Of a stretch of 64,000 nt of DNA, positions 7,833 through 26,726 are shown piece by piece. Numbering within the stretch: position 1 is the first letter of the stretch; each line of letters opens with the position of its first letter. The notes under the pieces are model-generated. The model was not told the DNA's origin and made no database searches. It was given only the letters and a program-made list of their open reading frames with translations. The stretch spans positions 1,594,844 through 1,658,843 of the forward strand of contig OZ220686.1 of NCBI GenBank assembly GCA_965116435.1, given 5' to 3'. This DNA is from Rhodothermales bacterium. GTDB taxonomy: Bacteria > Bacteroidota > Rhodothermia > Rhodothermales > VXPQ01. Both the position numbers and the translations under genes were made by a program.

Positions 7833-10271
7833 TCACCATGCCAAACGAACCCGGAGATTAAACGTGCGCGGCGTCAGGCGGGTGGGAATGCGCTCCCATA
7901 TTCCGTCGCGGTTCGGCGTCCAGGCATAGGCTACCGTGTTCGTCATATTGAACGCATTGAGCAGCTCCGCGGTCAATTCCAGACGCAAACCCGCCCCGAC
8001 GTCCACGATCTTCGTAGCCCCCAGATCGACGCGCCGGTACGCAGGATACCGGGCCGAATTTCGTGCGCCGGGCGCCTGAATGACGAAGCGCCCGACTTGC
8101 CGGTCGGGCACCGGCGGCGTGTAGGGAAATCCGCTCCCGAACAGCCCGCGCACATGCACTTTCCAGGTGGAATCTCCCGGCACATAGTCCTGCACGAACA
8201 GCGACACCGTGTGCCGCTGATCCGACGGACGCGCAATGCTTCCGGTGCGATATTCCGTCCGGTATTCCGGCAAAAACGTCTCGACGGCGTGCAGATACCC
8301 GTAATTCAGGCGACTTTCGAGGCCGGGCACGAGTTCGCCGTACAGATGCACGTCCAGCCCAAGCGCCCGCCCCTCCGTATCGTTCCGGCCGGAATACAGC
8401 AGGCGAACGTTCCGCACGTCGTACGATATGAGCCGATCCATATCCCGGTAAAACGCGGCGGCGCGTACGTACAGCCGCCGGGCGGGCAAAAAATATTCGC
8501 CGCCCACAACATATTGCACGGCCCGCTGAGACCGGATATCGCGGTTCAGCGCATCGGGTATCGTTTCGCCCGGCGCAGGCGTACCCCGAAATTCGCGGTA
8601 GGTCGGCGTCTGGCGATAGTGGCCCCACGAACCGGTGGCCGTCAAGCGTTCGCTCACCGCGTACCGGGCCGAAATTCTCGGGGAAACGGTCCAGGCGCCG
8701 TTGAACGAAAAACGGTCCGCCCGCATCCCGGCGGTAAGGGTTAGCCCGCCTCGCTGCATGGTATTCTGCGCGTACGCGCCGGTTTGCCACGCCGAAAGCG
8801 AGGATTCGTCGGACAGGCGGTTCACCTCGATGCGGACGGCGTCCCCGTTCGTGTCCCTGCCAAACAGGTTGGCGTACTCGTCGATCCGGTCGGAAAAAGA
8901 CCAGGCCCGAACGCGCCAGCCCGCCTCCGCTGCGTGCCGCCCCGCCTGCCATCTGTACCGGCCCTGCCCGGTCCATGCAGCGCTTTCTATGGCGTTGTCG
9001 GCGAATTCCTCTTCGCGCACGTTCCCTATGGGCGCATGGCCCGCGCCGGTTTCAGGATCGCCGCCGGGATCGACGCGAAACACGACCGACGTCCCCTCGA
9101 TATCGAAGCGTTCCGTCTCGGACGTGCCGAACCAGGCTATATCGTGTTCTGCGTGGACCGACGGAGAAATCCGGTTCAGCAAACGGACGCCAGCGAACCG
9201 CGTCCGGTATCCGTCGTGTTCCGCGCCCTCGTACCGGGTCCAGAACGAACGCAAGTCCGACGGTACGTCGGGATGGAGGCTCAAGACGCCGAACCAGGTC
9301 TTGCGGCTCTCCGGGCTGAAGCGGAACACATGGTTGGCGTACATGCCCAGTACTTCGATTTCGTGTCCCGCCCGGAAGCGCCAGGTCGCCAGCCCCTGTA
9401 CGTCCGTGTAGTCGGGGCGATAATCCCCCTTCAGTTCCTGCGTACCAAAGAAATGCCGGGCGCGCGCCTTCCGAAACCCGGCGTTCCATCCAAACCGCCC
9501 GTCCGCCGCCGCCCCCCGGTACGCCACGCTGGCGTCCAGCAACGAGGCCGAGGCAGACCCGCCCATGGATTCGACATACGGACGGCGATAGCGCGTGTCC
9601 AACACAGAGGACAATTTGCCGCCGTACTTCGCCGGAAATCCCCCCGTGTACAGCACGATCCGATCGGCCAGGTCCGGGTTCAGCAAGCCGAGTCCTTCCT
9701 GCTCTCCTTGCCTCGGGCGCAACGGCATGTGCACCTCGAAACCGTTGATCAGGATAAGATTCTCGTGAAATCCGCCCCCATGCACCGAATACTGGTTGGA
9801 GAGTTCGTTGTTGGTCGCGACGCCCGGCAATACGCTCAACGCCTGGAACCCCTTGAACGGCGAAGGCACGTTGCGCACAGCCTCCGAGTCCAGTTCGTAC
9901 ACCCCGGGGTTCGTAAAAAACACATTCCCTTCCACCACAATATCCTGCATCTCGACCGTAGACGCCCGCAGGCGAACGTCCAGAACCACCCGTTCGCCGG
10001 AACGGATCTGCACGCGCCGCCATGTCGTCTCGTACCCCACCGCCGAGAACCGCAACACATGGGTCCCCGACGGGAGCCGAAGCACATAGGTCCCGTCCTC
10101 CTTGCTGGCGGTGCCGAAGTTGGTGTCGCGCACCAGAATGCTGACGTCGGGAACGGGCGTATCCTCCGCAGCCGTCAGGATGCGCCCGGACGCCGCCCCC
10201 CATTCCTGGGCCAGGGCGCCGAAAGGCCACAAGGCGGCGACGACAGCCAAAAAGGCGAATGCAGTGCGCAC
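7833..10271 (-). CDS. TonB-dependent outer-membrane receptor with N-terminal CarboxypepD_reg-like domain
   Basis: Signal peptide, then ...ILVRDTNFGTASKEDGTYVLRLPSGTHVLRFSAVGYE (carboxypeptidase-regulatory-like fold). Plug/barrel-like sequence with an aromatic C-terminal residue. Confidence 0.82.
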   Translation of the reverse strand: MRTAFAFLAVVAALWPFGALAQEWGAASGRILTAAEDTPVPDVSILVRDTNFGTASKEDGTYVLRLPSGTHVLRFSAVGYETTWRRVQIRSGERVVLDVRLRASTVEMQDIVVEGNVFFTNPGVYELDSEAVRNVPSPFKGFQALSVLPGVATNNELSNQYSVHGGGFHENLILINGFEVHMPLRPRQGEQEGLGLLNPDLADRIVLYTGGFPAKYGGKLSSVLDTRYRRPYVESMGGSASASLLDASVAYRGAAADGRFGWNAGFRKARARHFFGTQELKGDYRPDYTDVQGLATWRFRAGHEIEVLGMYANHVFRFSPESRKTWFGVLSLHPDVPSDLRSFWTRYEGAEHDGYRTRFAGVRLLNRISPSVHAEHDIAWFGTSETERFDIEGTSVVFRVDPGGDPETGAGHAPIGNVREEEFADNAIESAAWTGQGRYRWQAGRHAAEAGWRVRAWSFSDRIDEYANLFGRDTNGDAVRIEVNRLSDESSLSAWQTGAYAQNTMQRGGLTLTAGMRADRFSFNGAWTVSPRISARYAVSERLTATGSWGHYRQTPTYREFRGTPAPGETIPDALNRDIRSQRAVQYVVGGEYFLPARRLYVRAAAFYRDMDRLISYDVRNVRLLYSGRNDTEGRALGLDVHLYGELVPGLESRLNYGYLHAVETFLPEYRTEYRTGSIARPSDQRHTVSLFVQDYVPGDSTWKVHVRGLFGSGFPYTPPVPDRQVGRFVIQAPGARNSARYPAYRRVDLGATKIVDVGAGLRLELTAELLNAFNMTNTVAYAWTPNRDGIWERIPTRLTPRTFNLRVRLAW

Positions 10272-10386
10272 GAGGCGTTACGCTTCGATGTGAGGGCAGG
10301 GCCGGATTATCGTAGCCGTTCGGTCAATGGGCAGATAGGGTATGCTTCATTATCTGTGCATGATTTCTGTGCATGCGCGTCTGAAC

Positions 10387-11862
10387 TCAGTAGGCCCGGG
10401 CGAACACGACGCGGCGGTTCGAGGGCTTGCCGGTCAGCATATCCCGGCCTGCTTCGCCCGCTCCATCCATGGGAATACAGCGGATGGTCGCTTTCGTTTC
10501 CTGTTTGATGCGCGCCTCCGTGTTCGGATCGCCGTCCCAGTGCGCCAGCACGAACCCGCCGTGCCGGTCCAGCGTGTCTTTGAATGTTTCGTAGTCGTCC
10601 ACGCGCCGGGTCGCGGCTTCGCGCATGGCCAGCGCCCGGTCGAACAGGCGCTGCTGCATCGCTTCGAGCGTGGCCTGGACCCGATCAGGAAGGCCCTCCT
10701 GCGAAACGATGTCCTTGCCGGGCTCATCCCGCCGCGCCATTTCCACCTGGCCGTTCCGAACGTCCCGGGGACCGATCGCGAGGCGAATCGGCACGCCTTG
10801 CACTTCGTATTCGTTGAATTTCCAGCCGGGACGATGCGACGTGCGCGCATCCAGCTTGACGCGAACGCCCGCCGCGCGCAGCGCCGCACGCATGCGTTCG
10901 GCCGCTTCAAGCACCAGCGTCCGTTCGGCGTCTTTCCGGAAAATAGGCACGATGACGACCTGCACCGGGGCCAGGCGCGGCGGCAGAACCAGGCCCTGGT
11001 CGTCCGAATGCGTCATAATGAGCGCGCCGATCAGGCGAGTCGAAACGCCCCAGGACGTCGCCCACACATATTCGAGCCGGTTTTCCCGGTTCTGGAACTG
11101 GCAATCGAACGCCTTGGCGAAGTTCTGGCCCAGAAAATGACTGGTGCCGGCCTGCAAGGCCTTGCCGTCCTGCATCATGGCCTCGATGCAATACGTGTCC
11201 ACCGCGCCCGCGAACCGCTCGCTGGCCGTTTTGACGCCCCGAAGCACCGGCATGGCCATCCATTCCTCGGCGAACGTAGCGTACACGTCCAGCATGCGGC
11301 GGGCTTCCTCAACGGCTTCCTCTTTCGTTTCGTGGGCCGTGTGGCCCTCCTGCCAGAGGAATTCCATCGTGCGCAAGAACAGCCGGGTGCGCATTTCCCA
11401 GCGCACGACGTTCGCCCATTGATTGACGAGAATGGGCAGGTCGCGCCAGGATTGAATCCAGCTCCGGTAGGCGTCCCAGATGATCGTTTCGCTGGTGGGG
11501 CGCACCACAAGATTCTCTTCCAGTTTCGACGCAGGGTCGGGCACAAGCCCCTCACCGGAGGGATTTTCCGTAAGGCGCGAGTGGGTAACCACGGCGCACT
11601 CCTTGGCGAACCCTTCTACGTGTTCGGCTTCCCGCGCCAGGAAGGACTGGGGAATGAACAGGGGAAAATAGGCGTTCTCGTGCCCGGTTTCCCGAAACAT
11701 GTCGTCGAGCGCCCGGCGCATATTCTCCCAAAGCGCACAGCCGTTCGGGCGAATCACCATGCAGCCGCGCACCGCCGAATAATCGGCCAGTTTCGCATGC
11801 TGCACAATGTCGAGATACCATTGGGCGTAATCTTCCTGCCGGCTTGTAATTGCATCGGCCAT
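10387..11862 (-). CDS. proS: Proline--tRNA ligase (archaeal/eukaryote-like type)
   Basis: N-terminus ...[35 protein letters not shown] and overall length (491 aa) are typical of this ProRS type. Confidence 0.93.
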
Positions 11863-12201
11863 AATTATTGCAACGTAGGTGGATGTGTATTGCAGGTGAT
11901 GTGATACGCTGTCGCGGAGAAACTGGACGAAAAATCGCGGGCGTCCGGGGGTGTTCCGACGCCGATTCGCCCGGCGTACAGGAGAAACAGTCCCGAATGT
12001 TGCGGAATTTGCGGAAATGGCCCGATGTTTGCGTTATTCCGGATCAAGACCGCTGGAACCGAACGAACGTCGTTCTTTCTTCAGGGAAAGCAATAAGTTC
12101 CGCCGTTTGTTCGCAATCATGCGGCACCTTATGCATCCTTGCCCGTACAAATCTTAAACGGAAGCACCGCCTGCCAAGTTTTCACCAAACCGGTTGCCGC
12201 C

Positions 12202-13602
12202 ATGAAACGATCAACACTACCCAAGCGAGAGACCTCTCGCCCCGCATTACGCGCGGCGCCTTTCACCGCAGGACTGCTTGTCGTGCTGCTGGCCGGTTGT
12301 TACACGCAATTGAGCACGGTTCAATACGAACAGTACCCCGATTACGTGGAGGTGGTGCAAAGCGCCGAGGACACCGTCGTCACGGAACACTACTACAGCG
12401 ACCGGTACGTCTACAGCGGGCCCTACGGCTATCGGCGGTATTTCGACCGGTTCGATTACGGCTGGAGTCCGTACTCGTCCAGTGCGTTCTTCGGGCCGTC
12501 CTGGGCCGATCCCTTGTGGTACGACCCCTGGAGCTACGGATATGGATACAGCGGCGTTCGCGTGGGCTTGTCCTTCGGATCGCATTGGGGATGGGGCGGA
12601 AATTCCTACTACGCCCCCTGGCGTTACGATCCGTACTACCACAGCCCCTGGCATTACGATCCGTATCGCCCCTATAGTCCCTACGGCTATTACCCGGGCT
12701 ACGCGCATACCTGGAACCCCTATTACGGCGGATGGCGGTATGACTATCCGGGAACGATTCGCCCCAGAGATGGCGAATGGAGAGATGGAGAATGGGGTCG
12801 TCGCGGGGCGACCATGGGACGGGGCGGCGGAACCCACGGATACGCCGGGGACGTCGGGAACGCCCCGGTCCGCGAAGTGGGCAGGGCGGGAAGCGCTTCC
12901 GCCGGAAAGACGCGCGGCGGTTCGGCCGTGTCTGGCGGGCGCTCGACGCGAACCGGATCGGGCGTAACGCCCACCCGGTCCCGCGATACGCGGCGCACCA
13001 CTGCGACAACCAGCGGATCAAGCGGACGCACCGTGCGCTCGGCGCCCGGATCCCGGTCTTCGTCGGCGACCGGCAGCCGGAGTACCGCACGCACGTCCGG
13101 CTCCTCAAGCAGCGGCGATAGCGGGTCCAGCGGACGAACCGTACGGCGCACGCCCTCTTCAAGCAGCGGCAGCAGCGGGTCCAGCGGGCGCACCGTACGA
13201 CGCACGCCCCCCTCGAGCAGCGGCAGTAGTGGGTCCAGCGGACGAACCGTACGACGCACGCCCTCCTCGAGCAGCGGCAGCAGCGGGTCCAGCGGGCGCA
13301 CCGTACAGCGCACGCCCTCCTCGCGGTCTTCGTCGTCCAGCGGCAGTCGGGTCCGCTCGTCCGGCTCCTCGCGGAGCAGCGGCAGCAGTTCCAGCGGAAG
13401 CACCGTACGGCGTACGCCCTCTTCAAAGAGCAGCGGCTCCAGTGGACGCACCGTACGCTCGGCGCCGTCCTCGCGGAGAAGCAGCGGATCGAGCGGAGGC
13501 GCCGTACGTTCCTCCCCGCCGCCGAGGTCTTCGTCGGGCAGCAGCGGACGGTCTTCTTCGAGAGGCTCCTCCTCATCGTCAGGCCGTTCCCGCGGACGAT
13601 AA
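12202..13602 (+). CDS. Low-complexity lipoprotein: Tyr/Trp/Pro/Gly-rich N-half and Ser/Gly/Arg/Thr-rich repeat C-half
   Basis: MKRSTLPK...LLVVLLAGC lipobox. Codon-periodic tandem repeats. Long antisense ORFs here are by-products of the repeats. Start chosen at the ATG preceding the signal peptide. Confidence 0.6.
   Translation: MKRSTLPKRETSRPALRAAPFTAGLLVVLLAGCYTQLSTVQYEQYPDYVEVVQSAEDTVVTEHYYSDRYVYSGPYGYRRYFDRFDYGWSPYSSSAFFGPSWADPLWYDPWSYGYGYSGVRVGLSFGSHWGWGGNSYYAPWRYDPYYHSPWHYDPYRPYSPYGYYPGYAHTWNPYYGGWRYDYPGTIRPRDGEWRDGEWGRRGATMGRGGGTHGYAGDVGNAPVREVGRAGSASAGKTRGGSAVSGGRSTRTGSGVTPTRSRDTRRTTATTSGSSGRTVRSAPGSRSSSATGSRSTARTSGSSSSGDSGSSGRTVRRTPSSSSGSSGSSGRTVRRTPPSSSGSSGSSGRTVRRTPSSSSGSSGSSGRTVQRTPSSRSSSSSGSRVRSSGSSRSSGSSSSGSTVRRTPSSKSSGSSGRTVRSAPSSRRSSGSSGGAVRSSPPPRSSSGSSGRSSSRGSSSSSGRSRGR
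13108..13323 (+). repeat. Four near-perfect 54-bp (18-aa) in-frame tandem repeats, with degenerate copies on both sides (~13000-13500)
   Basis: Unit agcagcggcNNNagYgggtccagcggRcgMaccgtacgRcgcacgcccYcYtcR encodes SSG(D/S)SGSSGRTVRRTPSS. Confidence 0.85.
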
Positions 13603-13767
13603 ACGGTACGACGAACCGGCATAGCCGCGGCGTGGCAACCTTCCCCGGAAGTATCGTCAGGATCGTGCTTTTCAAGCGATCCCAAGCCCTTCCTGTACCC
13701 TTGCGAACCGTACCCCATGCCCACAACCGTGTCAGGATACTCTGAACAAAACCAGACAGGCACTCCC

Positions 13768-15318
13768 ATGAAAAGGCGCTTTCTTTCCATACTGACCCTT
13801 GTCCTGTTCGCGGCGTCTCCCGCCTATGCGCAGACCCTCGACAACACCTACGTCTTCACCTCGAGATCCCCGGCGACCGGCCCGCGCATGATGGGCATGG
13901 CGGGTGCCGGTATCGCAGGCATAGCGGACTACGGGGCGCTGCGTACGAATCCCGCCGGGCTGGGCTATTTCAAGAACTCGGAGGTCAGCGGCGCCCTGCA
14001 CGCGTTCTCATCCACAGACGCCTCCAAATACCGGACCGGCATTCGCACGGTTGCCGAGGGGGAAACCGATGTGCGCGCCACGCGCCTCGGCAACCTGGCC
14101 TGGATACAGAAATTCCCGACGTCGCAAGGGTCGTTCGTGCTGGGCGGGGCGTTCAACGAACTCGGCACGTTCGACCGCAACCTGACGTTCGCGGGAACGA
14201 ACGCATCCAGTTCCATCAGTACGTCGTGGCTGCCCTACGGCGACGAGTTTACGATTGACAAGGACGAAAATGGCTATTTCCCGGTGTTCTCCAACGACCT
14301 GCCCAAACTGGCCTACGAAGGCGGAGCCATCGAATTTCTGGAGGAAAACGTGCTCCTGGACAGCGACCTGTTCTATGAGGCCGTTGCGCCGGGCACGCGC
14401 ATCGAACAAATGGGGGATGTGCTCGAAAAGGGACGTATGAGCGAATTGAGCCTTGGCGGCGCCTGGGAGGCAAGCCGGAATGTGATGGTCGGTTTGTCGG
14501 CCAACTTCGCATTCGGTTCGTACCGCATCGACAACGTATACGAGGAAGCGGACGCCTACGGCGAAAACGGACCGGAGGAGTACGAGGTGATTCTGGACAG
14601 CGGTTCCCTGTTCGGGTTTCAGAGCCTGCTCTACGAGGAAGGGTTCGATTCGGACCTGAGCGGATTCAATCTGCGGGGCGGCGTCTCCACGACGTTCTCA
14701 AGCGGATTGCGCGCAGGCCTCTCGATAGAAAGCCCTACGTTCTACGAAATAAGCGAAACCCATTACCGGGAGATTGCAACCCGGTTCGACGAGGGCGGCT
14801 TGCTGAAGGCCGACATCAGTTACCAATACGAATACGAGTTGCGCACCCCCTGGCGCATGGGGGTCGGCGTATCCTGGGAACCCGGCAACCTGCTTCTGGC
14901 CGCGGATATGGAATATGTGGACTGGTCCCAGATGGAGTTCGACGGACATGAGGCGGACAGCGACTTGTACAGGAACCTGAACCGGGAAATACGGGACACC
15001 ATGGACCCGGTCTGGAATATGCGGATCGGCGCATCGTATGCATTCGAAAACGTTACCTTTCGAGGCGGCATAGCCAACTATCCCGATCCGTTCGACCTGG
15101 AGGTCTCGCAGGGCAGCGGCAAAGCCGACCGCGACCGAGGCTTCCTGTCCTTCGGCGTGTCGTACCGCTTCTCGGACACGTTTCATGTCGATGCGGGATG
15201 GACAGGCGTGGAATACCAGGACCAGTACACTCCGTACCGTCACGTGGACGATCCGCCGCTCGCCGAGGAAACCGTAACGCAGCAACGCTTCCTGCTGGGC
15301 ATACGGGTAGGATTCTAA
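13768..15318 (+). CDS. Outer-membrane beta-barrel protein, FadL/OmpP1/TodX-like transport family
   Basis: Signal peptide MKRRFLSILTLVLFAASPAYA. N-terminal MGMAGAGIAGIADYGALRTNPAGLG motif. C-terminal ...LLGIRVGF with terminal Phe. Confidence 0.65.
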   Translation: MKRRFLSILTLVLFAASPAYAQTLDNTYVFTSRSPATGPRMMGMAGAGIAGIADYGALRTNPAGLGYFKNSEVSGALHAFSSTDASKYRTGIRTVAEGETDVRATRLGNLAWIQKFPTSQGSFVLGGAFNELGTFDRNLTFAGTNASSSISTSWLPYGDEFTIDKDENGYFPVFSNDLPKLAYEGGAIEFLEENVLLDSDLFYEAVAPGTRIEQMGDVLEKGRMSELSLGGAWEASRNVMVGLSANFAFGSYRIDNVYEEADAYGENGPEEYEVILDSGSLFGFQSLLYEEGFDSDLSGFNLRGGVSTTFSSGLRAGLSIESPTFYEISETHYREIATRFDEGGLLKADISYQYEYELRTPWRMGVGVSWEPGNLLLAADMEYVDWSQMEFDGHEADSDLYRNLNREIRDTMDPVWNMRIGASYAFENVTFRGGIANYPDPFDLEVSQGSGKADRDRGFLSFGVSYRFSDTFHVDAGWTGVEYQDQYTPYRHVDDPPLAEETVTQQRFLLGIRVGF

Positions 15319-15347
15319 GGAAACCGCCCAAGCCCAAGGAAGAATTG

Positions 15348-15407
15348 CCGGGGTTTCGGAAGCCGGTTTTGGGTACATTAGGTATGCGAACTCTTCCGAA
15401 ACCCCGG
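15348..15407. other. 15-bp perfect inverted repeat (ccggggtttcggaag / cttccgaaaccccgg) with a 30-nt loop at the left edge of the lower-GC segment
   Basis: Arms at 15348-15362 and 15393-15407. Sits between the FadL-like stop (15318) and the ATPase start (15420). No T-tract follows. Confidence 0.6.
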
Positions 15408-15419
15408 CGACCCGCTCCG

Positions 15420-16688
15420 ATGATTCGTCGCATCCAGGCCCTGAATTACCGTTGCCTGCGCCATGTGGATGTGGCGCTGGATTCGTTCCATGTGCTGGTG
15501 GGCCCCAACGCCAGCGGGAAGAGCACGTTGTTCGATGTGGTCGCCTTCCTGGGCGACATGGTGCGAGAGGGCCTTGAGGCCGCCGTAGAAAAACGCACCC
15601 GGAATTTTCAGGACCTTGTCTGGGACAGGCCCCGGGAAGGCCTTGGTTTCGAGCTGGCGGTAGAGTTCGACATTTCGGACGCCATCAAAAAAAGATTGCC
15701 CTCGGATAAGAACTTTGAAGTATTTCGTTACGAGGTAGCCATCAAGGAAGGAGAAAGCGGGACGGCTATAATCAACTCGGAAAGAGGACTGCTTATGCCT
15801 CGCCATAACTGGCAAGAGAGGCAATTATCCATATTCCCTTCCCCGTTGGATCCGATTAATACCATCATGCTGGGCGGCGGGCGCCCAGGCGTACGAACCA
15901 TACTCAGTAAGTCGCCCGCGGGATCTGACAGTTTCCACAGCGAGGTCTCGTCGGCAGCGGGAAGCGGCTGGACAACCAGCATCTCCTTTGGCCCATATCG
16001 GTCGGCGCTTGGCAACTTTCCCGAGTCCACCGATGTGTTTCCCGTTGCCACCGGCGTCAAGCGGATGCTGGAAACACAGGTAAAACTTCTGGCTCTGGAC
16101 AGCGGCAAGATGCGCGCGGCCAGCCCTCCCGCGTTGCGGCGCAACGGTTTCTTCAGCGACGGCGCGAATCTCCCCTGGACGATCAAGAATTTGAAAGAGC
16201 ATGACCGGAAAAATTACGCGGAGTGGCTGGAGCACGTTCGGACTACCTTGAAAGACATCAAGGACATTGACGTCAAGGAGCGGAAAGATGACCGACATGC
16301 CTACCTTGTAGTCGAGTACGATACAGGCATTCACGTGCCGTCGTGGGGCGTTTCCGACGGAACGCTACGGTTTCTGGCGCTCACGCTCATTCCGTATCTG
16401 TCCGAAGAAGGGTATCTCTATTTGCTGGAAGAGCCCGAAAACGGCATTCACCCACTCGCAATCGAAGCCGTGTACGATTCGCTGGCGTCGGCGTACGACT
16501 CGCAGGTGCTGGCGGCGACCCATTCCTCCGCTTTCTTGCGAAAGGCTCGACTGGAGGAAGCGCTCTGTTTCGCCAAAGACAAAAACGGGGCGACGGACAT
16601 CGTGTGCGGCGCGGATCATCCGCGCTTACGGGATTGGCAAAAAGCCGTAGATATGAACCTGTTGTTCGCTGAGGGAATTATCGGATGA
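15420..16688 (+). CDS. ABC/SMC-like AAA ATPase (AAA_21/AAA_15-type, OLD/AriA/AbiL-like N-terminal ATPase architecture)
   Basis: Walker A GPNASGKST near the N-terminus. Signature-like SDGTLRFLAL. Walker B/D-loop YLYLLEEPENGIHP. The start at 15420 places Walker A about 30 aa in; 15384 and 15198 are upstream alternatives. Confidence 0.8.
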   Translation: MIRRIQALNYRCLRHVDVALDSFHVLVGPNASGKSTLFDVVAFLGDMVREGLEAAVEKRTRNFQDLVWDRPREGLGFELAVEFDISDAIKKRLPSDKNFEVFRYEVAIKEGESGTAIINSERGLLMPRHNWQERQLSIFPSPLDPINTIMLGGGRPGVRTILSKSPAGSDSFHSEVSSAAGSGWTTSISFGPYRSALGNFPESTDVFPVATGVKRMLETQVKLLALDSGKMRAASPPALRRNGFFSDGANLPWTIKNLKEHDRKNYAEWLEHVRTTLKDIKDIDVKERKDDRHAYLVVEYDTGIHVPSWGVSDGTLRFLALTLIPYLSEEGYLYLLEEPENGIHPLAIEAVYDSLASAYDSQVLAATHSSAFLRKARLEEALCFAKDKNGATDIVCGADHPRLRDWQKAVDMNLLFAEGIIG

Positions 16689-17347
16689 ATGAGTACGCGA
16701 AAGATATCTTCGCTCTGGTTGCAGACAGAGATATGGAACAGGCTTTCACGAGTTTATTGGCGCAACATGAAAAATTGCGTATTCGACGGATACGTTACGA
16801 TATTGAGGTGCATCCAAACCACGATGCAGGATGTCGAGCAGATGCCGTCGAGATGTTACGGCCCTGCATTAACCGCTACAGGTATGCCTTGGTGGTTTTT
16901 GACCACCAGGGTTGCGGCAGCAAGGATTCAAGAGAGCATGTGCAGCAAGAGGTTCAGAAAATCCTTGCGCGGAACGGTTGGGAAAACCGTTGCAAGGCCA
17001 TCGTGATTGCGCCGGAATTGGAAAACTGGGTATGGGCGCCCTCGGGAAAGATATCCGAAATCCTAGGTTGGGGAAATGACTTCGACGCCCTCAAGACGTG
17101 GCTGTGCAAACACCGTTTATGGAGCCGTGATCAGCCGAAACCTATCGACCCGAAGCGTGCAATGCAAAAAGCCTTGAAGCACAAAAGGGTAAGGCGCTCT
17201 TCCAGGCTATTCGGGCAGATTGCCCATGTTGCGCCGCTGAAAGCGGAATCTTGTGTGGATCCCGCTTTCGCCGAACTCAGGGAAACGTTGCAACGATGGT
17301 TTCCCCCGGAAAACCACACCGGTAACGGACTGCGTGGCGTATCTTAA
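16685..17347 (+). CDS. Small partner protein, DUF4276/Toprim-like (tentative)
   Basis: ATGA overlap with the ATPase gene (16685-16688). Acidic beta-strand-end motifs [16 protein letters not shown] and [10 protein letters not shown] recall what I remember of DUF4276/Toprim-like partners of AAA_21 ATPases. Not verifiable here. Confidence 0.5.
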
Positions 17348-17376
17348 ACAGAACCCGCAGGACTCATACGAAACCC

Positions 17377-18411
17377 TTGGCGCCTTCCCCGGAAACTGTG
17401 TCGAACAGTGATCTTGCATATCAGGAACGTATTCTGCAAGGCGTTTCCCGCACCTTTGCCCTCACGATCCCGCAGTTACCGACCGGGCTGCGCGACGTCG
17501 TAGGGAATGCCTACCTCCTGTGCCGCATCACGGACACGATCGAAGACGATCCGGCCCTCTCCGCCGAACAAAAACGAGCGTTCGCAGAACGTTTCGCCGA
17601 CATCGTCGCAGGACGAGAAGACGCCGAACCGTTTGCGCGCGAACTCGGCCCCCTGCTGTCGTCTTTTACCTCCCCGGACGAACGCGACCTGATCGCCCAC
17701 GCCGACCGCGTTATCCGCCTTACCAGCGGATTCAACGCCGCCCAGCGAGGCGCCCTCGAACGTTGCGTCCGCATTATGGCGCACGGCATGGCGGAATTTC
17801 AACAGAGCGCCACGCCGAACGGCCTGAACGACATCCCGCACCTGGATCGCTATTGCTACTACGTAGCGGGCGTCGTAGGCGAAATGCTCACCGAGCTGTT
17901 CTGCGACTATTCCAGCGAGATCAACGAACATCGCGAGGAATTGCTGGCGCTGGCCGTTTCCTTCGGACAAGGCTTGCAAATGACCAACATCCTCAAGGAC
18001 ATATGGGACGACCGGGAGCGCGGCGCATGCTGGCTTCCGCGGGACGTCTTTCTCGCCGCCGGTTTCGACCTGCACGCCCTGTCTCTGGACCAGACCCATC
18101 CCGGGTTCGCCGAGGGATTATCCGAACTGGTCGGCGTCGCCCGCCAACACCTCGAAAACGCGCTCCGGTACACCCTGATCATACCTGCCCGCGAAACGGG
18201 CATTCGGCGACACTGCCTGTGGGCGCTGGGCATGGCCGTACTAACCCTCCGACGCATTCACGCAACGCCTGCGTTCCGCAGCGGACAGGAGGTGAAAATT
18301 TCCCGGCGCAGCGTGTGGACGGTGGTTATCGTCACCAGCATCCTGGCGCGCTCGAACCGGGCGCTGACGTTCCTTTTCAGGGCCATGGCGAAACGGTTGC
18401 CTTCCTCGTGA
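17377..18411 (+). CDS. Squalene synthase (farnesyl-diphosphate farnesyltransferase), SQS_PSY family
   Basis: [12 protein letters not shown], Asp-rich [18 protein letters not shown], second Asp-rich NILKDIWDD. The DTxED form is SQS-like rather than CrtB-like. TTG start in the track. Confidence 0.78.
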
Positions 18412-18603
18412 ACCTTCCCGTCGAAAAAACCGGTTTCATATTCTTTGCGTCTTCAGGAAACACTCAATAAAATGATTCAGTTTAATTCGTTTTTATTGTG
18501 CGCAATCTGCTTACGTAAGACCCAAATTCTTCCGGCCTCCCGAACCAACAACATACAAAAACCCCTCTGTGCCAATAAAGAACGCGAAGGTACGTAATCC
18601 CCC

Positions 18604-19806
18604 GTGATCGCAGAACCGGAATATATCCCCTCGTGTTATCTGCCCGGCTACGCCAAGGCCCGGGCATTGAACGCTGAACGGGCAGCCAATCATGTGGCCC
18701 ACTCGCTTATCGGAGACCCCGAAGCCGATGAGGTGATTGAACACATGGAGGCGATGCAGCCTGGCGAGGCGGCGCGATTATACAAGCTGGGAATAAACGC
18801 AGCTGATCCCGCGGAACGGGATCAGCTCTTGCGCGACGCCCCGCCCGCATTGCGGGATTTCCTGAACAAGCTGGATACGCCGCCCGACTGGGTCGATCTG
18901 TCGGCCTGTGGTCCGGGCGTACGCATGTTTCACAGGAATTCGCATCTGGTGCTCGGCGCCTTTGTCGGGGGCACCCTCATAGAGGGATTCGCGACGAACA
19001 TCAGCAAGTCTTTTTTCATAACCGGGCGAGTTCGGGAATACGGCGTCAGGCGTTTACGACAGAATAACCGCCACATGTTGGAAATATTCATGCCGGGCGG
19101 CCTGGGACGAGGCGGCGACGGCTGGAAATTGTCCATGCGCATCCGACTGATCCACGCACAAATAAGACACCTCCTGAACAACGCGGAAGACTGGGATACG
19201 GAAGCATGGGGCGTACCTATTAGCGCGGCGCATATGGGCTTCTCCATCGCAGCGTTTTCCGCAAGGTTGCTTAAGCATCTGAAAAGCCTGGGCGCTGGAT
19301 ACAGCCACGAAGAACGCGAGAGTTTTATGCAAATCTGGCGCTATTCGGGATTTTTAATGGGCGTTCCCGAAACGATTTTGTACCACGACGAGGAAGAGGC
19401 GTTAGAGATATTTCGCATAGGCCGCATGTGCGAACCTTCGAGCGAACTGGAAGCCGTCGCCATGGCGAATGCATTGATCAACTCGGCCCCGCTGGTGATA
19501 GGCGTTACGGAATCGAGCGCCCGATTCGCCTTGGCCCAGTATGTATACCGGGTGTCCCGGGCGCTCATTGGAAACGACCTGGCCGATGCGCTGAAATACC
19601 CTGCGGGCCGGACCTTCGGCGTACTGCCGTTGTTCCGGCTTCAGTCTCGTTACGCCAGCATCATCGAACGCTTGTTCCCGAACCGCAAAAAAGGAGGAGG
19701 CTTCTCCCGATTCACGGCCCTGCTTGAAGCCTCTGCATTCGATATCGCGGGCATAAACTTCAGAATGCCGGAGAAATTGTATGCGGAACAAGACATCAAT
19801 TATTAG
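18604..19806 (+). CDS. MpaB/Lcp-family oxygenase (DUF2236), paralog 1
   Basis: WKLSMRIRLIHAQIRHLL motif and overall collinearity with the next two ORFs. GTG start. Confidence 0.7.
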   Translation: MIAEPEYIPSCYLPGYAKARALNAERAANHVAHSLIGDPEADEVIEHMEAMQPGEAARLYKLGINAADPAERDQLLRDAPPALRDFLNKLDTPPDWVDLSACGPGVRMFHRNSHLVLGAFVGGTLIEGFATNISKSFFITGRVREYGVRRLRQNNRHMLEIFMPGGLGRGGDGWKLSMRIRLIHAQIRHLLNNAEDWDTEAWGVPISAAHMGFSIAAFSARLLKHLKSLGAGYSHEERESFMQIWRYSGFLMGVPETILYHDEEEALEIFRIGRMCEPSSELEAVAMANALINSAPLVIGVTESSARFALAQYVYRVSRALIGNDLADALKYPAGRTFGVLPLFRLQSRYASIIERLFPNRKKGGGFSRFTALLEASAFDIAGINFRMPEKLYAEQDINY

Positions 19807-19883
19807 CATGCAATAGAGGGTCCGGGTTTGGCCATCCAGGAAAGATCCGTCCGATTTACTTGATCAACACGCAGGATAAAGCC

Positions 19884-21053
19884 ATGCGCATGCCCTCCGC
19901 ATATCAAGACGGTTACGAGAAGGCGCGTGCCCTATACCCAGAGCTGGCGGACGCCTATATTGAGAATACCCTTGTGGGCGATCCTGTGGCGGACGCCGCC
20001 ATGGAGTCGCTGGCGGAATGTAGCCAGGAAGACAGGCATCGCTTTATCAAGGCAGGCATGGAGCGCGACGAGGAAGGCCTGCGAGCCGCTCCGAACGCAC
20101 TGCAGGAGTTTTTCGCCGTCCTTGACCGGCCGCCGCCGTTCGAGTTCGACCCGGAACTGGCGGCCATTGGCTCTCGTGCTTTCTACAAATATTCGGATAT
20201 GTTCTTCGTCGGGTTGGTGCTGGATTCGCTCATCACTGGCCTCAGCGAAGGATTAGCAAAAGCGTTCTATATTACAGGGCGAACGGCGGGAAATAGCCGT
20301 AGAGTCAAGCAGAATACCAGGCATGTGGTGGAGATTACCTTGCCGGGCGGCATGGAACGAATGGGCGATGGCTGGAAACTAACCGTTCGCATTCGCCTCA
20401 TCCATGCGCAGGTGCGGCTGCTATTGCTCAATTCGGACGAATGGGACGTACCCACGGAAGGGGTGCCGCTCAATATGGCGCATATGGCATTGGCGGGCAC
20501 AGGATTTTCCGCGATCAACCTGCGGTCGGCGAGGAAGTTGGGCGTACGGTTGACAAAGGACGAAAGCGCCGGCTTCATGCACATTTGGCATTATGTCAAC
20601 TGGTTGCTGGGCGTACCGGAAAGTCTGCTGTACCGCACCGAAGACGAGGCCTTGCGCATCCGGAAAATCGCCCGCGCCTGCGAGATTCCCCCCGGCGAAA
20701 AGGCCATTGCCGTAGCGCACGGCTACATCAACACCGTCCCTGAACTGCTCGACGTCCAGGAGCCCGCCAAGCAGCAAAAACTCCTCAACGGCCTGTTTCG
20801 GGTCTCGCGGGCATTGATTGGAAACGAACTGGCCGACGCCCTCGATTTCCCCAGGCAAGCGACGTTCGGGATTCTGGCGCTGACGCGGCTGCAACGGCAG
20901 TTCCAGATCCTCCGTTCAAAAATCGTTCCGGGGGCTATGCCGCATGCCGTGGAGAATTTTTCGGGGCTGATACATCGGTCCGTGTACGACAAAAGCGGAA
21001 TCAGTTACCGCATGCCCGACGCCGTGAAAGGGGACGAGTCGAGTTGGTGGTAG
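19884..21053 (+). CDS. MpaB/Lcp-family oxygenase (DUF2236), paralog 2
   Basis: WKLTVRIRLIHAQVRLLL. N-terminus MRMPSAYQDGYEKARAL aligns with the paralog 1 and 3 N-termini, so the ATG at 19884 is preferred over the TTG at 19860. Confidence 0.7.
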   Translation: MRMPSAYQDGYEKARALYPELADAYIENTLVGDPVADAAMESLAECSQEDRHRFIKAGMERDEEGLRAAPNALQEFFAVLDRPPPFEFDPELAAIGSRAFYKYSDMFFVGLVLDSLITGLSEGLAKAFYITGRTAGNSRRVKQNTRHVVEITLPGGMERMGDGWKLTVRIRLIHAQVRLLLLNSDEWDVPTEGVPLNMAHMALAGTGFSAINLRSARKLGVRLTKDESAGFMHIWHYVNWLLGVPESLLYRTEDEALRIRKIARACEIPPGEKAIAVAHGYINTVPELLDVQEPAKQQKLLNGLFRVSRALIGNELADALDFPRQATFGILALTRLQRQFQILRSKIVPGAMPHAVENFSGLIHRSVYDKSGISYRMPDAVKGDESSWW

Positions 21054-21108
21054 TGCTTCGTGCTTCGCGGGCAAGCCCATGAAACTACGCGCGGCGCGGA
21101 TGAACGCG

Positions 21109-21143
21109 CACCGCACCGGCGGATACGTAACCAATGGGGCCTG
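21109..21143 (+). repeat. 35-bp direct repeat, copy 1 (caccgcaccggcggatacgtaaccaatggggcctg)
   Basis: 33/35 identical to 22547-22581. Contains the quasi-palindrome GGATACGTAACC. Lies 56 nt after the paralog 2 stop. Confidence 0.8.
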
Positions 21144-21263
21144 ACGAGTGCGCTACGCAGAGCAAGGAGCGTCGACAAACGACGGAACAAAGCAGGAAAC
21201 AGGCTGGTCTACAAGTCGTTCAGAGGTTTTCCAGGCACGATTGGACAGATTTTTAAATACGCC

Positions 21264-22444
21264 ATGATGCAGGTACCTTCAGCGTATGTCAAGGGATATG
21301 CGAAAGCCAAGGCTGTTGACCCGGTAACGGCCGACAAGTACATCAAGCATACCACCATAGGCGACCCTGAGTTGGATCCCGTGATGGAGGAGATTTCATC
21401 GTTGCCCCCTGGCGATCTGCATCGATTCACCAAGGCAGGCATAGAACAGGAGGAGGAAGTTCTGCGTACTGCGCCGCAAGTCTTGCGCGATTTCTTTGAC
21501 AAGACTGACCGTGATACTCCTCCGTGGCTGGACTACAACGAGTTTGAACCAGGGCAGCGCGCCTTCTACGCAAACTTGAACAACATGCTCATTGCATACG
21601 CTATCGGAAGCGCCGTAGAAGGCTTTTCGACGCTTGTCAGCAAGTCTTTCTCGATTACCGGACGCGTAACCGGTGGGGGAGCAGGCGCCGAAAGACGTCT
21701 CAGGCAGAATAACCGACACATGGTTGAAGTATATTATCCTGGTGGAATGCAACGGGATGGTGACGGATGGAAAGTATCCATGCGCATTCGTTTCATACAT
21801 GCCCGGGTAAGGAAACTGCTGGCGGACTCAAGCCTTTGGGAGTACGAGGCTTGGGGAGTACCGCTGAGCGCAGCGCATACAGGAGGCATCTCCTTGTTCA
21901 CTTTTTCCATACGCCAGTTCGAACACGCATGCGCGATGGGTTCGAAAGTAAGCACGGAACAAAAAGAAAGCATTATTAAAATTTGGCGTTATGCCGGCTA
22001 TCTGTTGGGAGTGCCTGAATCCATACTCTTTGCCAATGAAGAAGAAGCGAGAAAAATTTACAAAATCGGCCATATGTGCGAACCACCGCCGGATTCCGAT
22101 GCGAAAAACTTGGCGAATATGGTATTCAAGGTCTTACCGACCATGGCGGGTCTGACGGACGAGGCTAAAAGAAAAGTTTGGAAATGTATGCCTACCGCCT
22201 TTCGCGAGCCCTTATAGGCAACAAACTTGCGGACCAGTTTCAGTACCCGAGAACTTTCAGAATAAGACCGCTGGTGCTGGCTTATTACCGGATAAAAAAT
22301 CATTTGCCTAATCTCATGAAGAATATCGGCAGCCAGCAAGAGGATGCGTTTTCTCAGATTTTCGATGCCACGCAGTATGACAAGGGCGGGATAAGCTACA
22401 AGATGCCCGACCATGTGCGTGCGTCGAAGTCCAACCTATGGTAA
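21264..22444 (+). pseudogene. MpaB/Lcp-family oxygenase paralog 3, interrupted by a -1 frameshift in an A-rich run (~22167-22175)
   Basis: 21264-22217 (..WKVSMRIRFIHARVRKLL..) ends prematurely. The frame opening at 22178 continues ..YRLSRALIGNKLAD..GISYKMPD.., collinear with the paralog 2 C-terminus (..FRVSRALIGNELAD..GISYRMPD..). Confidence 0.7.
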
Positions 22445-22546
22445 GATGTTGAAAAAGCTGTACTTAGGCTAAGCAAGAGCACCGAGAGCATCCGCGTAAG
22501 ACGGGGTGTCCAGAAAACTGTGTACGTTTATTTTTAGCGACGTTTT

Positions 22547-22581
22547 CACCGCACCGGCGCATACGTAACCAATGGGCCCTG
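22547..22581 (+). repeat. 35-bp direct repeat, copy 2 (caccgcaccggcgcatacgtaaccaatgggccctg)
   Basis: See copy 1. Lies 103 nt after the paralog 3 stop. Confidence 0.8.
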
Positions 22582-22629
22582 TTTTCCGTACAATGGGTAC
22601 CCCCTTATTGCGCTTTTTCGCCCGCATTG

Positions 22630-24153: not shown

Positions 24154-24365
24154 AAGGGTTTTCGGAAAATGCCGTAAAAATCCGGGGAATAGCGCCCGGA
24201 CGCCAAGGCGAACCTCGTTTCTATCGTCTTCATGCGTAATTTACGTGCGATATTGCTTTCGCGCCGTGCAAGCTGCGAACGCATGCGCCGCCTGCTTCGT
24301 CAAAGGGCGTCGTCATACCGAACCGACCATCTTCCATCCATCCCGTAACCACCCGACATTTCCCC

Positions 24366-26225: not shown

Positions 26226-26300
26226 GGATGCACGGATCGCATCCTTTGATCGGCGCTTCCTGAATCCCCTTGCCCTCCGACGGCCACATAGCCCGCGCTC

Positions 26301-26726
26301 ATGGAAACAACGGATCGGCTTGCGGAACTTGCCCGCCGCAACATAGACTGGGCGCACTGGGAAACGTTGATCCGCCGCCGCGGGGTCACCATAGACCGTC
26401 CGCACGGGACGAGGCACCCGGCGCACCCCTCCATTATCTATCCGATGGACTATGGATATGTGAATGGAACCCGCGGCACGGACGGAGAGGGCCTCGACGT
26501 GTTCCGGGGCACGGCCCGCACGGGACTCGCGGGCGCGATCGTCAGCACGGACCGGCGCAAGGGAGACCGGGAATTCAACTTGCTGTACGACTGTTCGCCC
26601 GAAGAAATTTATCTGGCCCACGGATTCATTAACTTTGACCCCCGCCGGATGGAAGGCGTGCTCGTCCTGCGCAAACCGATGGCCGACCTCTGGAAAGAAA
26701 TGGATGCATCTTTTTCCGGCGAATAG
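26301..26726 (+). CDS. Small inorganic-pyrophosphatase-like protein (141 aa)
   Basis: IIYPMDYGYVNGTRGTDGEGLDVF resembles the family I PPase core Y-P-x-x-Y-G-[FY]-[IV]-P-x-T...D-G-D-P-[LI]-D-V. Much shorter than a canonical PPase. Confidence 0.4.
   Translation: METTDRLAELARRNIDWAHWETLIRRRGVTIDRPHGTRHPAHPSIIYPMDYGYVNGTRGTDGEGLDVFRGTARTGLAGAIVSTDRRKGDREFNLLYDCSPEEIYLAHGFINFDPRRMEGVLVLRKPMADLWKEMDASFSGE

Follow-up and report, generated by a model that had tools for sequence, protein, structure and literature searches.

A MAD3-MAD4 ATPase-nuclease gene pair kept without the rest of MADS in a Rhodothermales genus

Introduction

Protein families that combine an ABC-type ATPase with a small Toprim-like partner are tied to anti-phage defence. 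MADS and HEC-01 are among the described systems closest to the gene pair analysed here. The methylation-associated defence system (MADS) is an eight-gene system of Pseudomonas aeruginosa SMC4386; the MacSyFinder model of its authors makes MAD6, MAD7, and MAD8 mandatory together, and the characterised MAD3 and MAD4 homologues are needed for phage defence and not for growth (bioRxiv 10.1101/2023.03.30.534895). Structures of P. aeruginosa MAD3-MAD4, published in Nucleic Acids Res in 2026, show that the two proteins assemble as a 2:2 heterotetramer. The complex requires Mg to cleave DNA; its ATPase dimer binds DNA and stabilises the nuclease, which is insoluble by itself, and co-expression of the two proteins is toxic (PMC13662399). 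The other system, HEC-01 (Hma-embedded candidate 01), was described by Payne et al. and gave no protection against the phages tried in Escherichia coli (bioRxiv 10.1101/2024.01.29.577857). In this work, we compare a gene pair of a Rhodothermales bacterium with these systems and follow its history within the genus and its relatives across phyla.

Results

Gene pair and motifs

The window, that is, the whole stretch of 64,000 nucleotides that was analysed, carries two genes on the forward strand: one for a MAD3-family ABC-type ATPase of 422 aa (15420..16688) and one for a predicted MAD4-family small Toprim-like nuclease partner of 220 aa (16685..17347). The ATPase contains the Walker A motif GPNASGKST at residues 28-36, with the lysine K34, the sequence SDGTLRFLAL at residues 312-321, the Walker B motif LYLLEEPENGIHP at residues 333-345, with E337 and E338, and ATHS at residues 366-369, with the H-loop H368. 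The small protein is characterised by the motifs LVADRD (11-16), VVFDHQG (70-76), and APELENW (109-115), and residues D14, D47, D73, E111, E113, K152, and K157 are conserved among 42 homologues. Both reading frames lie where the original prediction had placed them and carry the motifs that it named, and its claim of translational coupling agrees with the ATGA overlap of the two genes at 16685-16688. Orthologous pairs in seven other genomes of the genus, together with the 564 loci that encode relatives of the small protein, indicate that these are real genes. The same prediction saw the pair as opening a lower-GC segment. This holds for the pair, whose GC content of 55.0% lies below the 60.3% mean of the genome and at the 9.8th percentile of stretches of its size, with GC3 of 0.68 for the ATPase gene and 0.57 for the small one against 0.74-0.78 for the neighbours, but not for what follows, as the next gene downstream, for squalene synthase, is back at 61.9%.

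Family assignment

Both proteins score above the cut-offs of NCBIfam equivalogs. The ATPase reaches 453.3 bits over its full length against NF047739 (antiphage_MADS3; cut-off 420, model positions 1-427), and the small protein reaches 207.2 bits against NF047734 (antiphage_MADS4; cut-off 160, model positions 1-206); bona fide MADS proteins gave 547.5 and 233.2 bits, respectively. Each is 32% identical to its counterpart from a complete MADS operon, the small protein over its full length with an E value of 2e-26. Judged by sequence, the pair is thus a member of MAD3-MAD4, a family that has a name already and whose P. aeruginosa complex has been solved (PMC13662399), and the idea of an uncharacterised subtype had to be abandoned. 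Shared with MADS MAD3-MAD4 are both protein families, gene order, the overlapping stop and start, and Walker A K34. In the MAD4 pocket, D47, D73, E111, E113, and K157 correspond to the published D55, D81, E119, E121, and K164 at an offset of 7-8 residues, and D14 to D12 at a different offset. By the same offset, P. aeruginosa E83 is replaced by Q75, a position held by D or E in 25 of 42 relatives.

PADLOC models gave lower scores. For the ATPase, HEC-01A matched best (141 bits), ahead of mad3 (120), while the small protein scored 34 bits with mad4 and 20 with HEC-01B (E 1e-4); a bona fide HEC-01 pair elsewhere in the same genome reaches 530/282 bits (HEC-01A/HEC-01B), and a bona fide MADS pair 247/74 bits under mad3/mad4. 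Part of the ATPase is matched by the AriA (1e-27) and AbiLi (2e-20) models, and its Pfam matches are AAA_21/AAA_15. The phylogenetic tree included one MADS-embedded pair, which was placed outside the clade of the window pair, at the end of a very long branch. One fused relative, a single polypeptide of 656 aa, is known.

The small protein had originally been called DUF4276/Toprim-like, with the reservation that no secure assignment to DUF4276, DUF4435, or RloB was possible. Direct searches bear out the reservation: Pfam gave no match at E <= 1, DUF4276 was touched by only 3 of 42 family members (best E 0.062), and neither AriB and DUF4435 in PADLOC/Pfam nor the AbiLii/RloB models were matched. 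The label itself survives as remote homology, as hhalign linked the MAD4 family to DUF4276 over the full length (78%) and DUF4276 to the OLD Toprim domain (90%); a direct MAD4-to-OLD alignment found nothing (0.2%), so the OLD link is only transitive via DUF4276. The AlphaFold2 model (pLDDT 91.9) predicts a four-strand alpha/beta core with a helical domain, which fits the published description of MAD4. The fold comparison proposed with the prediction did not refute a Toprim-like protein, but Foldseek against the PDB returned no significant match to any solved Toprim structure. Sequence searches of the PDB with both proteins and the MAD4 profile did not retrieve the MAD3-MAD4 structures, and nothing else was found there for the small protein.

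The reading as a split OLD-like architecture, in which the genes for an ABC-type ATPase and for a small, acidic protein of Toprim-like type are translationally coupled, was upheld. Class 2 OLD proteins (Thermus scotoductus 6P74 and Xanthomonas campestris 6NJW) differ in being one polypeptide instead of two, and Foldseek recovered no OLD structure. The split arrangement is shared with PARIS (AriA/AriB) and AbiL (AbiLi/AbiLii), but the small protein matches the models of neither AriB (DUF4435) nor AbiLii/RloB; the assembly and tRNA-cleaving activity of PARIS are known of that system and not of the window pair. HEC-01 is likewise a two-gene combination of an ABC ATPase and a small Toprim-like partner, but HEC-01B is of the DUF4276 type, whereas the partner described here is of the MAD4 type. 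HEC-01 sits between HmaB and HmaC, as do close relatives of the window pair, while the window pair itself lies outside Hma.

Orphan state and locus

The pair lies between an outer-membrane barrel gene and the squalene synthase gene, with housekeeping flanks and no defence island; MADS, in contrast, occupies a defence hotspot. MAD1, MAD2 (the N6-adenine methyltransferase), MAD5 (its specificity subunit in self/non-self marking), MAD6 (kinase), MAD7, and MAD8 are absent from the window locus, and NCBIfam found no MADS family among the ten flanking proteins (window 7833-26621). The PADLOC mad2, mad5, mad6, and mad8 models were rejected as markers because they are non-specific, matching 8 to 14 of 14 control genomes; NCBIfam equivalogs, verified on a complete MADS operon of a Piscinibacter plasmid, were used in their place. 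Among the 12 genomes of the genus, MAD7 (NF047733) had no match in any (positive control, 657 bits), MAD2 (NF047738) gave nothing above cut-off, and MAD6 (NF047741) gave only partial kinase-domain matches, none above cut-off. The PADLOC model of MAD5 produced generic matches distant from the locus, and MAD8 was assessed with its non-specific PADLOC model only. The pair thus appears to be an orphan MAD3-MAD4, without the rest of MADS. At the window locus, the cassette is accompanied by neither a mobility gene nor a third gene resembling an antitoxin. Whether such pairs occur in housekeeping or in variable, defence-related contexts had been put forward as decisive for the defence reading, and the answer is mixed: neighbours are housekeeping genes here and at both distant loci sampled, yet the pair is polymorphic in presence and absence, and 15 of 80 relatives are found within Hma systems or next to them.

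History within the genus

Both genes are intact in eight species. Their dN/dS values (0.14 for the ATPase gene and 0.21 for the small gene) are as low as those of neighbouring housekeeping genes, while dS is elevated relative to the flanks; the reading frame 10342-11904 (+) was dropped as a control for this comparison because it is an antisense shadow of prolyl-tRNA synthetase. Every ATPase motif and the acidic and lysine residues of the nuclease pocket are retained, Q75 being the exception by offset. Within the genus, the pair is ancestral at this locus, evolves under purifying selection, and is always inherited vertically as a unit. It was also deleted at least twice, leaving scars that keep the final ~30 nt of MAD4, and in one species the pair is reduced to a remnant with an internal deletion. 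As G008 and G009 retain this 3' end, the view that the empty sites were never occupied is ruled out; the deletions are clean, with nothing put in place of the pair. Two single-contig genomes of 96-98% completeness (G002 and G010) have neither Hma nor MADS, and the pair they retain is equally constrained, while in G003 Hma is present and the pair has decayed. Outside the genus, the pair was found in 0 of 29 Rhodothermales genomes of other genera and in 0 of 14 control genomes.

Leader hairpin

An inverted repeat on the forward strand (15349..15408) precedes the ATPase gene, with 15-nt arms CCGGGGTTTCGGAAG and CTTCCGAAACCCCGG around a 30-nt loop, and ends 12 nt before the start codon. Within the loop, a block rich in T and A is conserved throughout the genus, and the leader RNA folds at -46.4 kcal/mol (z = -3.9). 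The outer stem is kept in nine of nine genus sequences, mostly through one-sided changes; covariation, with a term of only -0.52, was set aside as weak support for the hairpin. The left deletion junction in G008 and G009 falls just past the 5' arm, inside the loop. Scans for sigma-70 promoters and intrinsic terminators gave nothing above chance. The hairpin might act as a brake on expression or serve as terminator for the gene upstream.

Relatives across phyla and Hma systems

Relatives of the small protein occupy 564 loci in the species-genome collection. Among the best 80 of these, the ATPase gene adjoins the small gene in 78, 65 are orphans, and 15 have Hma genes no more than 10 kb away; approximately 11 of these 15 are located between HmaB and HmaC. 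The cassette transfers across phyla. The genome studied here has its own Hma system (full-length HmaB, 1737 bits, and HmaC, 1586 bits, and an SNF2/NOV_C helicase; C1:1579.3-1588.8 kb), with nothing embedded in it. It lies ~21.5 kb upstream of the pair, and the interval holds housekeeping genes, including a metal importer, a TonB receptor, and prolyl-tRNA synthetase, which rules out a single defence island joining the two. Within the genus, the chromosomal position of Hma varies widely, while the locus of the pair is fixed.

HmaB-type methylases occur in 30 of 50 pair-bearing genomes outside the genus and are absent from the other 20, and they were found in 0 of 29 Rhodothermales genomes outside the genus, all of which also lack the pair, a co-occurrence confounded by the general richness of pair-bearing MAGs in defence genes. 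Taken with the genus genomes, it rules out an obligatory dependence on Hma. In four genomes, an orphan pair coexists with a MADS operon, and no MAD3/MAD4 lies within ~10 kb of MAD7 (operon composition was checked in one).

Discussion

We favour the reading, at a probability of roughly 0.6, that the pair is an intact stand-alone MAD3-MAD4 module, a split OLD-type ATPase-Toprim nuclease acting alone in defence. By analogy with P. aeruginosa, the products would assemble 2:2, with an ATPase dimer that binds DNA and keeps the nuclease stable, and the assembly would perform Mg2+-dependent DNA nicking and cleavage; genomic context suggests that the cassette may work alone as an anti-phage or anti-mobile-DNA nuclease. 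Because co-expressed P. aeruginosa MAD3-MAD4 is toxic, an orphan copy would need a control mechanism. Restraint might come from low expression, to which the conserved leader hairpin may contribute, or from an ATPase that awaits an infection cue, as is the case for OLD, PARIS, and Gabija, but probably not from a dedicated methyltransferase. Several observations speak against stand-alone defence: the P. aeruginosa module works within an eight-gene methylation-based system, HEC-01 was unprotective, the neighbours are housekeeping genes, Foldseek matched no Toprim structure, and Q75 stands in place of E83.

The only proven role of the family, inside a methylation-based system, lends some plausibility to a different reading, namely that the pair works in trans as the effector of an unlinked methylation system, reading Hma or other host methylation and cutting incoming DNA that lacks it, the role attributed to MAD3-MAD4 within MADS. 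The complete Hma set in the same genome, the relatives in or near Hma, the frequency of HmaB-type methylases in pair-bearing genomes against their absence from pairless Rhodothermales, and the four MADS operons without nearby MAD3/MAD4 are all consistent with it. The genus argues otherwise, since two genomes keep the pair without Hma or MADS, a third has Hma and a decayed pair, and a variable Hma is separated from a fixed pair by 21.5 kb of housekeeping genes; 20 of the 50 other pair genomes also lack HmaB, and the co-occurrence is confounded as described above. We consider this reading unlikely, though it is the leading competitor. Somewhat less probable still is its general form, in which MAD3-MAD4 is a portable restriction effector for any host methylation system (MADS or Hma), unlinked ones included, and orphans are working parts of split systems (for the window pair, together with the Hma operon ~21.5 kb upstream) and not autonomous; if so, the MADS operons that lack MAD3/MAD4 in genomes with an orphan pair would show this arrangement from the other side.

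Repeated deletion, the internal-deletion remnant, toxicity in P. aeruginosa, low GC3, raised dS, and the failure of HEC-01 to defend would suit a selfish or decaying leftover, either what remains of a larger system or a toxic module that resembles an addiction system and persists with no benefit to the host. We find this improbable, as the genes are intact in eight species with housekeeping-like dN/dS and every catalytic motif, orphans make up 65 of the best 80 relatives over many phyla, unlike a transient relic, and no antitoxin-like or mobility gene is alongside. A housekeeping role in DNA repair or chromosome maintenance, with an SMC/Rad50-like ATPase and a Toprim nuclease, would explain the fixed site, the vertical descent under purifying selection, and the housekeeping neighbours in two distant genomes; it is very doubtful given the patchy distribution, the clean deletions, the cross-phylum transfer, the recurrent nesting in Hma operons, and characterised homologues that serve phage defence and not growth. 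Equally slim is the chance that the pair is, as originally predicted, an abortive-infection module outside the named families: the low PADLOC-DB v2 scores and the long branch of the MADS-embedded pair would allow it, but the NCBIfam cut-offs are passed and the proteins align end to end with those of MADS.

In kind, the stand-alone MAD3-MAD4 pair adds little that is new; it shows a unit that is kept, and repeatedly lost, independently. Automatic annotation would call such genes "methylation-associated" where the associated methylation system is absent, and the strong, non-obligatory co-occurrence with Hma-type methylases raises the question of a nuclease that reads methylation in trans. The value of the locus is that of a natural experiment, in which one genus has kept the pair at a fixed site in eight species, all of them without MADS and some also without Hma, but lost it at least twice. 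A function of its own was demonstrated neither by the MADS work, with its eight-gene setting, nor by the HEC-01 trial; maintenance under purifying selection without a MADS partner, together with deletions that leave scars, argues that the MAD3-MAD4 unit has one.

MAD3 and MAD4 Homologues at the Locus

MADS is an eight-gene methylation-associated defence system described in Pseudomonas aeruginosa SMC4386, in which mad2 encodes the methyltransferase and phage resistance requires each of mad2-4 and mad6-8 (bioRxiv 10.1101/2023.03.30.534895). The window carries a split OLD-like ATPase/Toprim-like nuclease pair that belongs to the MAD3-MAD4 family; it is intact and stands as an orphan without the remaining MADS genes. 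The MAD3-family ABC-type ATPase gene (15420-16688, plus strand) encodes 422 aa with a Walker A motif GPNASGKST (residues 28-36, lysine K34), SDGTLRFLAL (312-321), a Walker B motif LYLLEEPENGIHP (333-345), and an H-loop ATHS (366-369). Its stop codon TGA overlaps the ATG of the small gene (16685-17347, plus strand) as ATGA, and the 220-aa MAD4-family product contains LVADRD (11-16), VVFDHQG (70-76), and APELENW (109-115). The original prediction had placed both reading frames at exactly these coordinates. It had also described the pair as opening a lower-GC segment; the GC content of the pair is indeed low (55.0%, at the 9.8th percentile; the genome averages 60.3%), with third-position GC clearly below that of the neighbours, but the next downstream gene is already at 61.9%, so the description holds in part. 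In another genome of the genus (G011, locus L033 ~5024-5030), the ATPase ATG is replaced by ATA, and the start codon is probably a TTG located three bases upstream.

Family membership was established with curated NCBIfam models, against which both proteins aligned over the full model length: the ATPase scored 453 bits with antiphage_MADS3 (equivalog cut-off 420), and the small protein 207 bits with antiphage_MADS4 (cut-off 160). Pfam assigned AAA_21/AAA_15 to the ATPase and returned no match for the small protein. MAD3 and MAD4 of a Piscinibacter gummiphilus plasmid each share 32% identity with their counterparts in the window. PADLOC models, which had been proposed as a check, matched the pair weakly, giving 141 bits for HEC-01A and 120 bits for mad3 with the ATPase, and 34 bits for mad4 and 20 bits for HEC-01B with its partner. 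HEC-01 is a two-gene candidate in PADLOC (an ATPase, HEC-01A, and a DUF4276-type partner, HEC-01B), which by itself conferred no protection in tests (bioRxiv 10.1101/2024.01.29.577857). The Piscinibacter MADS pair scored 247 bits for mad3 and 74 bits for mad4, while a relative embedded in the separate methylation-based system Hma (L059) scored 152 bits for HEC-01A and 90 bits for mad3, with 33 bits for mad4 in its small partner. A second ATPase and small-partner pair lies outside the window in the same genome (contig positions ~829.5-831.4 kb; L175 1483-3344, minus strand), with 530 bits for HEC-01A, 282 bits for HEC-01B, and 118 bits for Pfam DUF4276. Since this second pair is a genuine HEC-01, two paralogous split OLD-like modules coexist in the genome. 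The PADLOC scores set apart three lineages.

The Small Protein and Its Relation to Toprim Nucleases

The published MAD4 structure comprises a Toprim-like domain and a helical domain, with an acidic pocket formed by D12, D55, D81, E83, E119, and E121, plus K164 (PMC13662399). The catalytic equipment is conserved in the window's family: D47, D73, E111, K152, and K157 are invariant in 42 homologues of the small protein, and D14 and E113 are conserved in 41 of them. The offset from the published residues is a constant 8 for D47, D73, E111, and E113, and 7 for K157, which, together with the alignment to a verified MADS MAD4, suggests that the pockets are equivalent. The position of E83 differs, being occupied by Q75 in the window's protein and by D or E in 25 of the 42 homologues.

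The original prediction had labelled the small protein DUF4276/Toprim-like. A confident AlphaFold2 model (pLDDT 91.9, pTM 0.86) predicts four beta strands alternating with helices, followed by a helical C-terminal half. Direct tests of the Toprim assignment gave a mixed picture: Foldseek found no match to this model in the PDB at E ≤ 0.001, sequence and profile searches of the PDB found nothing, and Pfam DUF4276 was touched by only 3 of the 42 family members (E ≥ 0.06); against viral predicted structures, weak matches were enriched in Toprim proteins (RloB-like proteins, primase/helicases, 'Toprim-like' proteins, and topoisomerases). Alignments of DUF4276 and OLD-like Toprim proteins were then built from genomes of the phylum and compared by hhalign. 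MAD4 matched DUF4276 over its full length (78% probability, E 1.8e-5, 193 columns), with LVAD, VVFD, PELE-W, and the C-terminal C-DPAF aligned to their counterparts, and DUF4276 in turn matched the OLD Toprim (90%, E 1.4e-6). Because of these two links the label is supported as a remote, transitive relation; it does not extend to a direct one, as MAD4 against the OLD Toprim reached 0.2%, the level of reversed-sequence controls (0.2%).

Genomic Neighbourhood

None of ten flanking proteins (7833-26621) matched a MADS protein in NCBIfam. Upstream of the pair lie genes for an outer-membrane barrel (13717-15318), a low-complexity lipoprotein, a TonB-dependent receptor, a metal ABC importer, and prolyl-tRNA synthetase (10387-11862, minus strand; Pfam tRNA-synt_2b, HGTP_anticodon, and ProRS-C_1), while squalene synthase (17377-18411) and MpaB-like oxygenase genes lie downstream. 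A long plus-strand reading frame at 10342-11904 was rejected as an antisense shadow of the synthetase gene. As the PADLOC models for mad2, mad5, mad6, and mad8 are non-specific, NCBIfam models were used to search for MADS, with the complete Piscinibacter operon, whose MAD1-8 all exceed the cut-offs, as reference. MAD7 matched in none of the 12 genus genomes (the plasmid gene was recovered at 657 bits as a positive control), and neither MAD6 nor MAD2 exceeded its cut-off in them.

The leader contains a 15-nt perfect inverted repeat (15349-15408) that ends 12 nt ahead of the ATPase start and folds as RNA at -46.4 kcal/mol (z = -3.9). Its outer stem is preserved in all nine genus sequences, with slight true covariation; consensus promoter and terminator scans were uninformative.

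Inheritance and Loss Within the Genus

MAD4 exceeds the cut-off in 8 of 12 genus genomes vs. none of 29 from other genera of the order. The same outer-membrane gene immediately precedes the pair in each of the eight, and synteny extends over the four upstream genes in all of them, while on the downstream side it is broken in several species. Inserts of 1.4-1.7 kb occur directly 3' of MAD4 in G004 (L039 10634-12383) and G002 (L034 ~10650-12000), and in other species it is here that downstream synteny breaks; the position just 3' of the pair acts as a hotspot for rearrangement or insertion.

The genus genomes lacking the pair have deleted an ancestral cassette, as indicated by the scars in G008 and G009, where the first ~50 nt of the leader run directly into the final ~30 nt of the MAD4 frame, stop codon included, and by a larger deletion in G005. 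The junction in G008 and G009 falls within the leader repeat. In G003, a remnant between the same flanks joins ATPase residues 1-82 to a fragment of the small gene. The tree of the flanking gene requires no fewer than two separate losses.

Where retained, the pair is under purifying selection, with a median dN/dS of 0.14 for the ATPase and 0.21 for the small gene vs. 0.16-0.26 for three flanking genes. Across the same pairs of genomes (orthologues in L033-L039), dS is higher in the pair than in its flanks by a factor of 1.6-2.5. The allele in the window diverges furthest within the genus, although its flanks group with G001, G003, G004, and G007. Low codon bias or allele exchange could account for this.

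The Wider Family and Its Association with Hma

Relatives of the small protein were found at 564 loci of a species-genome collection, and among the best 80 the small gene directly adjoins the ATPase gene in 78, the two being inherited as a unit. With clustering at 50% identity, an exhaustive profile search yielded 1,719 representatives, of which 1,333 reached E ≤ 1e-10; these MAD4-type representatives are nearly all free-standing, of 200-230 aa, with one 656-aa fusion (P0204) of MAD3 (residues 1-419, sharing 41% identity with the ATPase in the window) and MAD4 (427-629). The fusion represents either a one-chain OLD architecture that has arisen anew in nature or an error of 1 nt in the reading frame where the genes overlap at ATGA. 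Geoalkalibacter subterraneus plasmid pGSUB1 (L135, 181386-186427) may show another context for the ATPase family: it encodes a MAD3-like ATPase (33% identical), for which no MAD4 is annotated, and after it an Eco57I-type methylase, a NERD nuclease, and a further methyltransferase.

Beyond the pair itself, no gene family is shared by more than 12 of the best 80 neighbourhoods; the neighbours that recur are HmaB (a DUF1156 methylase) and HmaC (a DUF499 ATPase). Hma genes lie within 10 kb of the pair in 15 of the 80, and in about 11 the pair sits between HmaB and HmaC, the arrangement that defined HEC-01; metabolic genes surround it at two distant orphan loci. The family is horizontally mobile: when the pairs are concatenated for a tree, those from different phyla intermix, those adjacent to Hma are dispersed among orphans, and the MADS-embedded pair has a very long branch; the genus forms a single clade (support 100) with a gammaproteobacterial sister.

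The window's genome itself holds a complete, uninterrupted Hma operon upstream (contig positions 1579292-1588780; L133 9292-18781, minus strand), separated from the window start by ~6 kb and from the pair by ~21.5 kb, encoding HmaC (945 aa, 1586 bits), HmaB (969 aa, 1737 bits), and a 1219-aa SNF2/ResIII helicase with a NOV_C domain. The pair and Hma do not track each other within the genus: the pair is present and Hma absent in G002 and G010, G003 has Hma with the pair only as a remnant, and Hma occupies differing chromosomal positions. HmaB-type methylases occur in 30 of 50 pair-bearing genomes across phyla vs. none of 29 Rhodothermales outside the genus. The association is real without being obligatory, and the overall abundance of defence genes in these MAGs is a confounder. 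A true MAD7 is found in just 4 of the 50 genomes, megabases away from the pair in every case; at these four MADS-type loci (L145-L148), no MAD3 or MAD4 lies within ~10 kb of MAD7. The one such locus detailed (L145, G069:C1:4743000-4762900) has MAD5, 6, 7, and 8 over the cut-off and an N6-methylase, and a 324-aa ClpP-like SDH-type protease in the slot between the methylase and MAD5.

MAD3-MAD4 was characterized in 2026 as a 2:2 heterotetramer with ATPase activity, which nicks and linearizes plasmid DNA with Mg2+ or Mn2+; MAD4 by itself is insoluble, and co-expression of both proteins is toxic in E. coli (PMC13662399). By homology, the window's pair would likewise form a 2:2 assembly with Mg-dependent DNA cleavage. 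It may read methylation imposed by an unlinked system; judged from its context, an autonomous role in defence is more probable.
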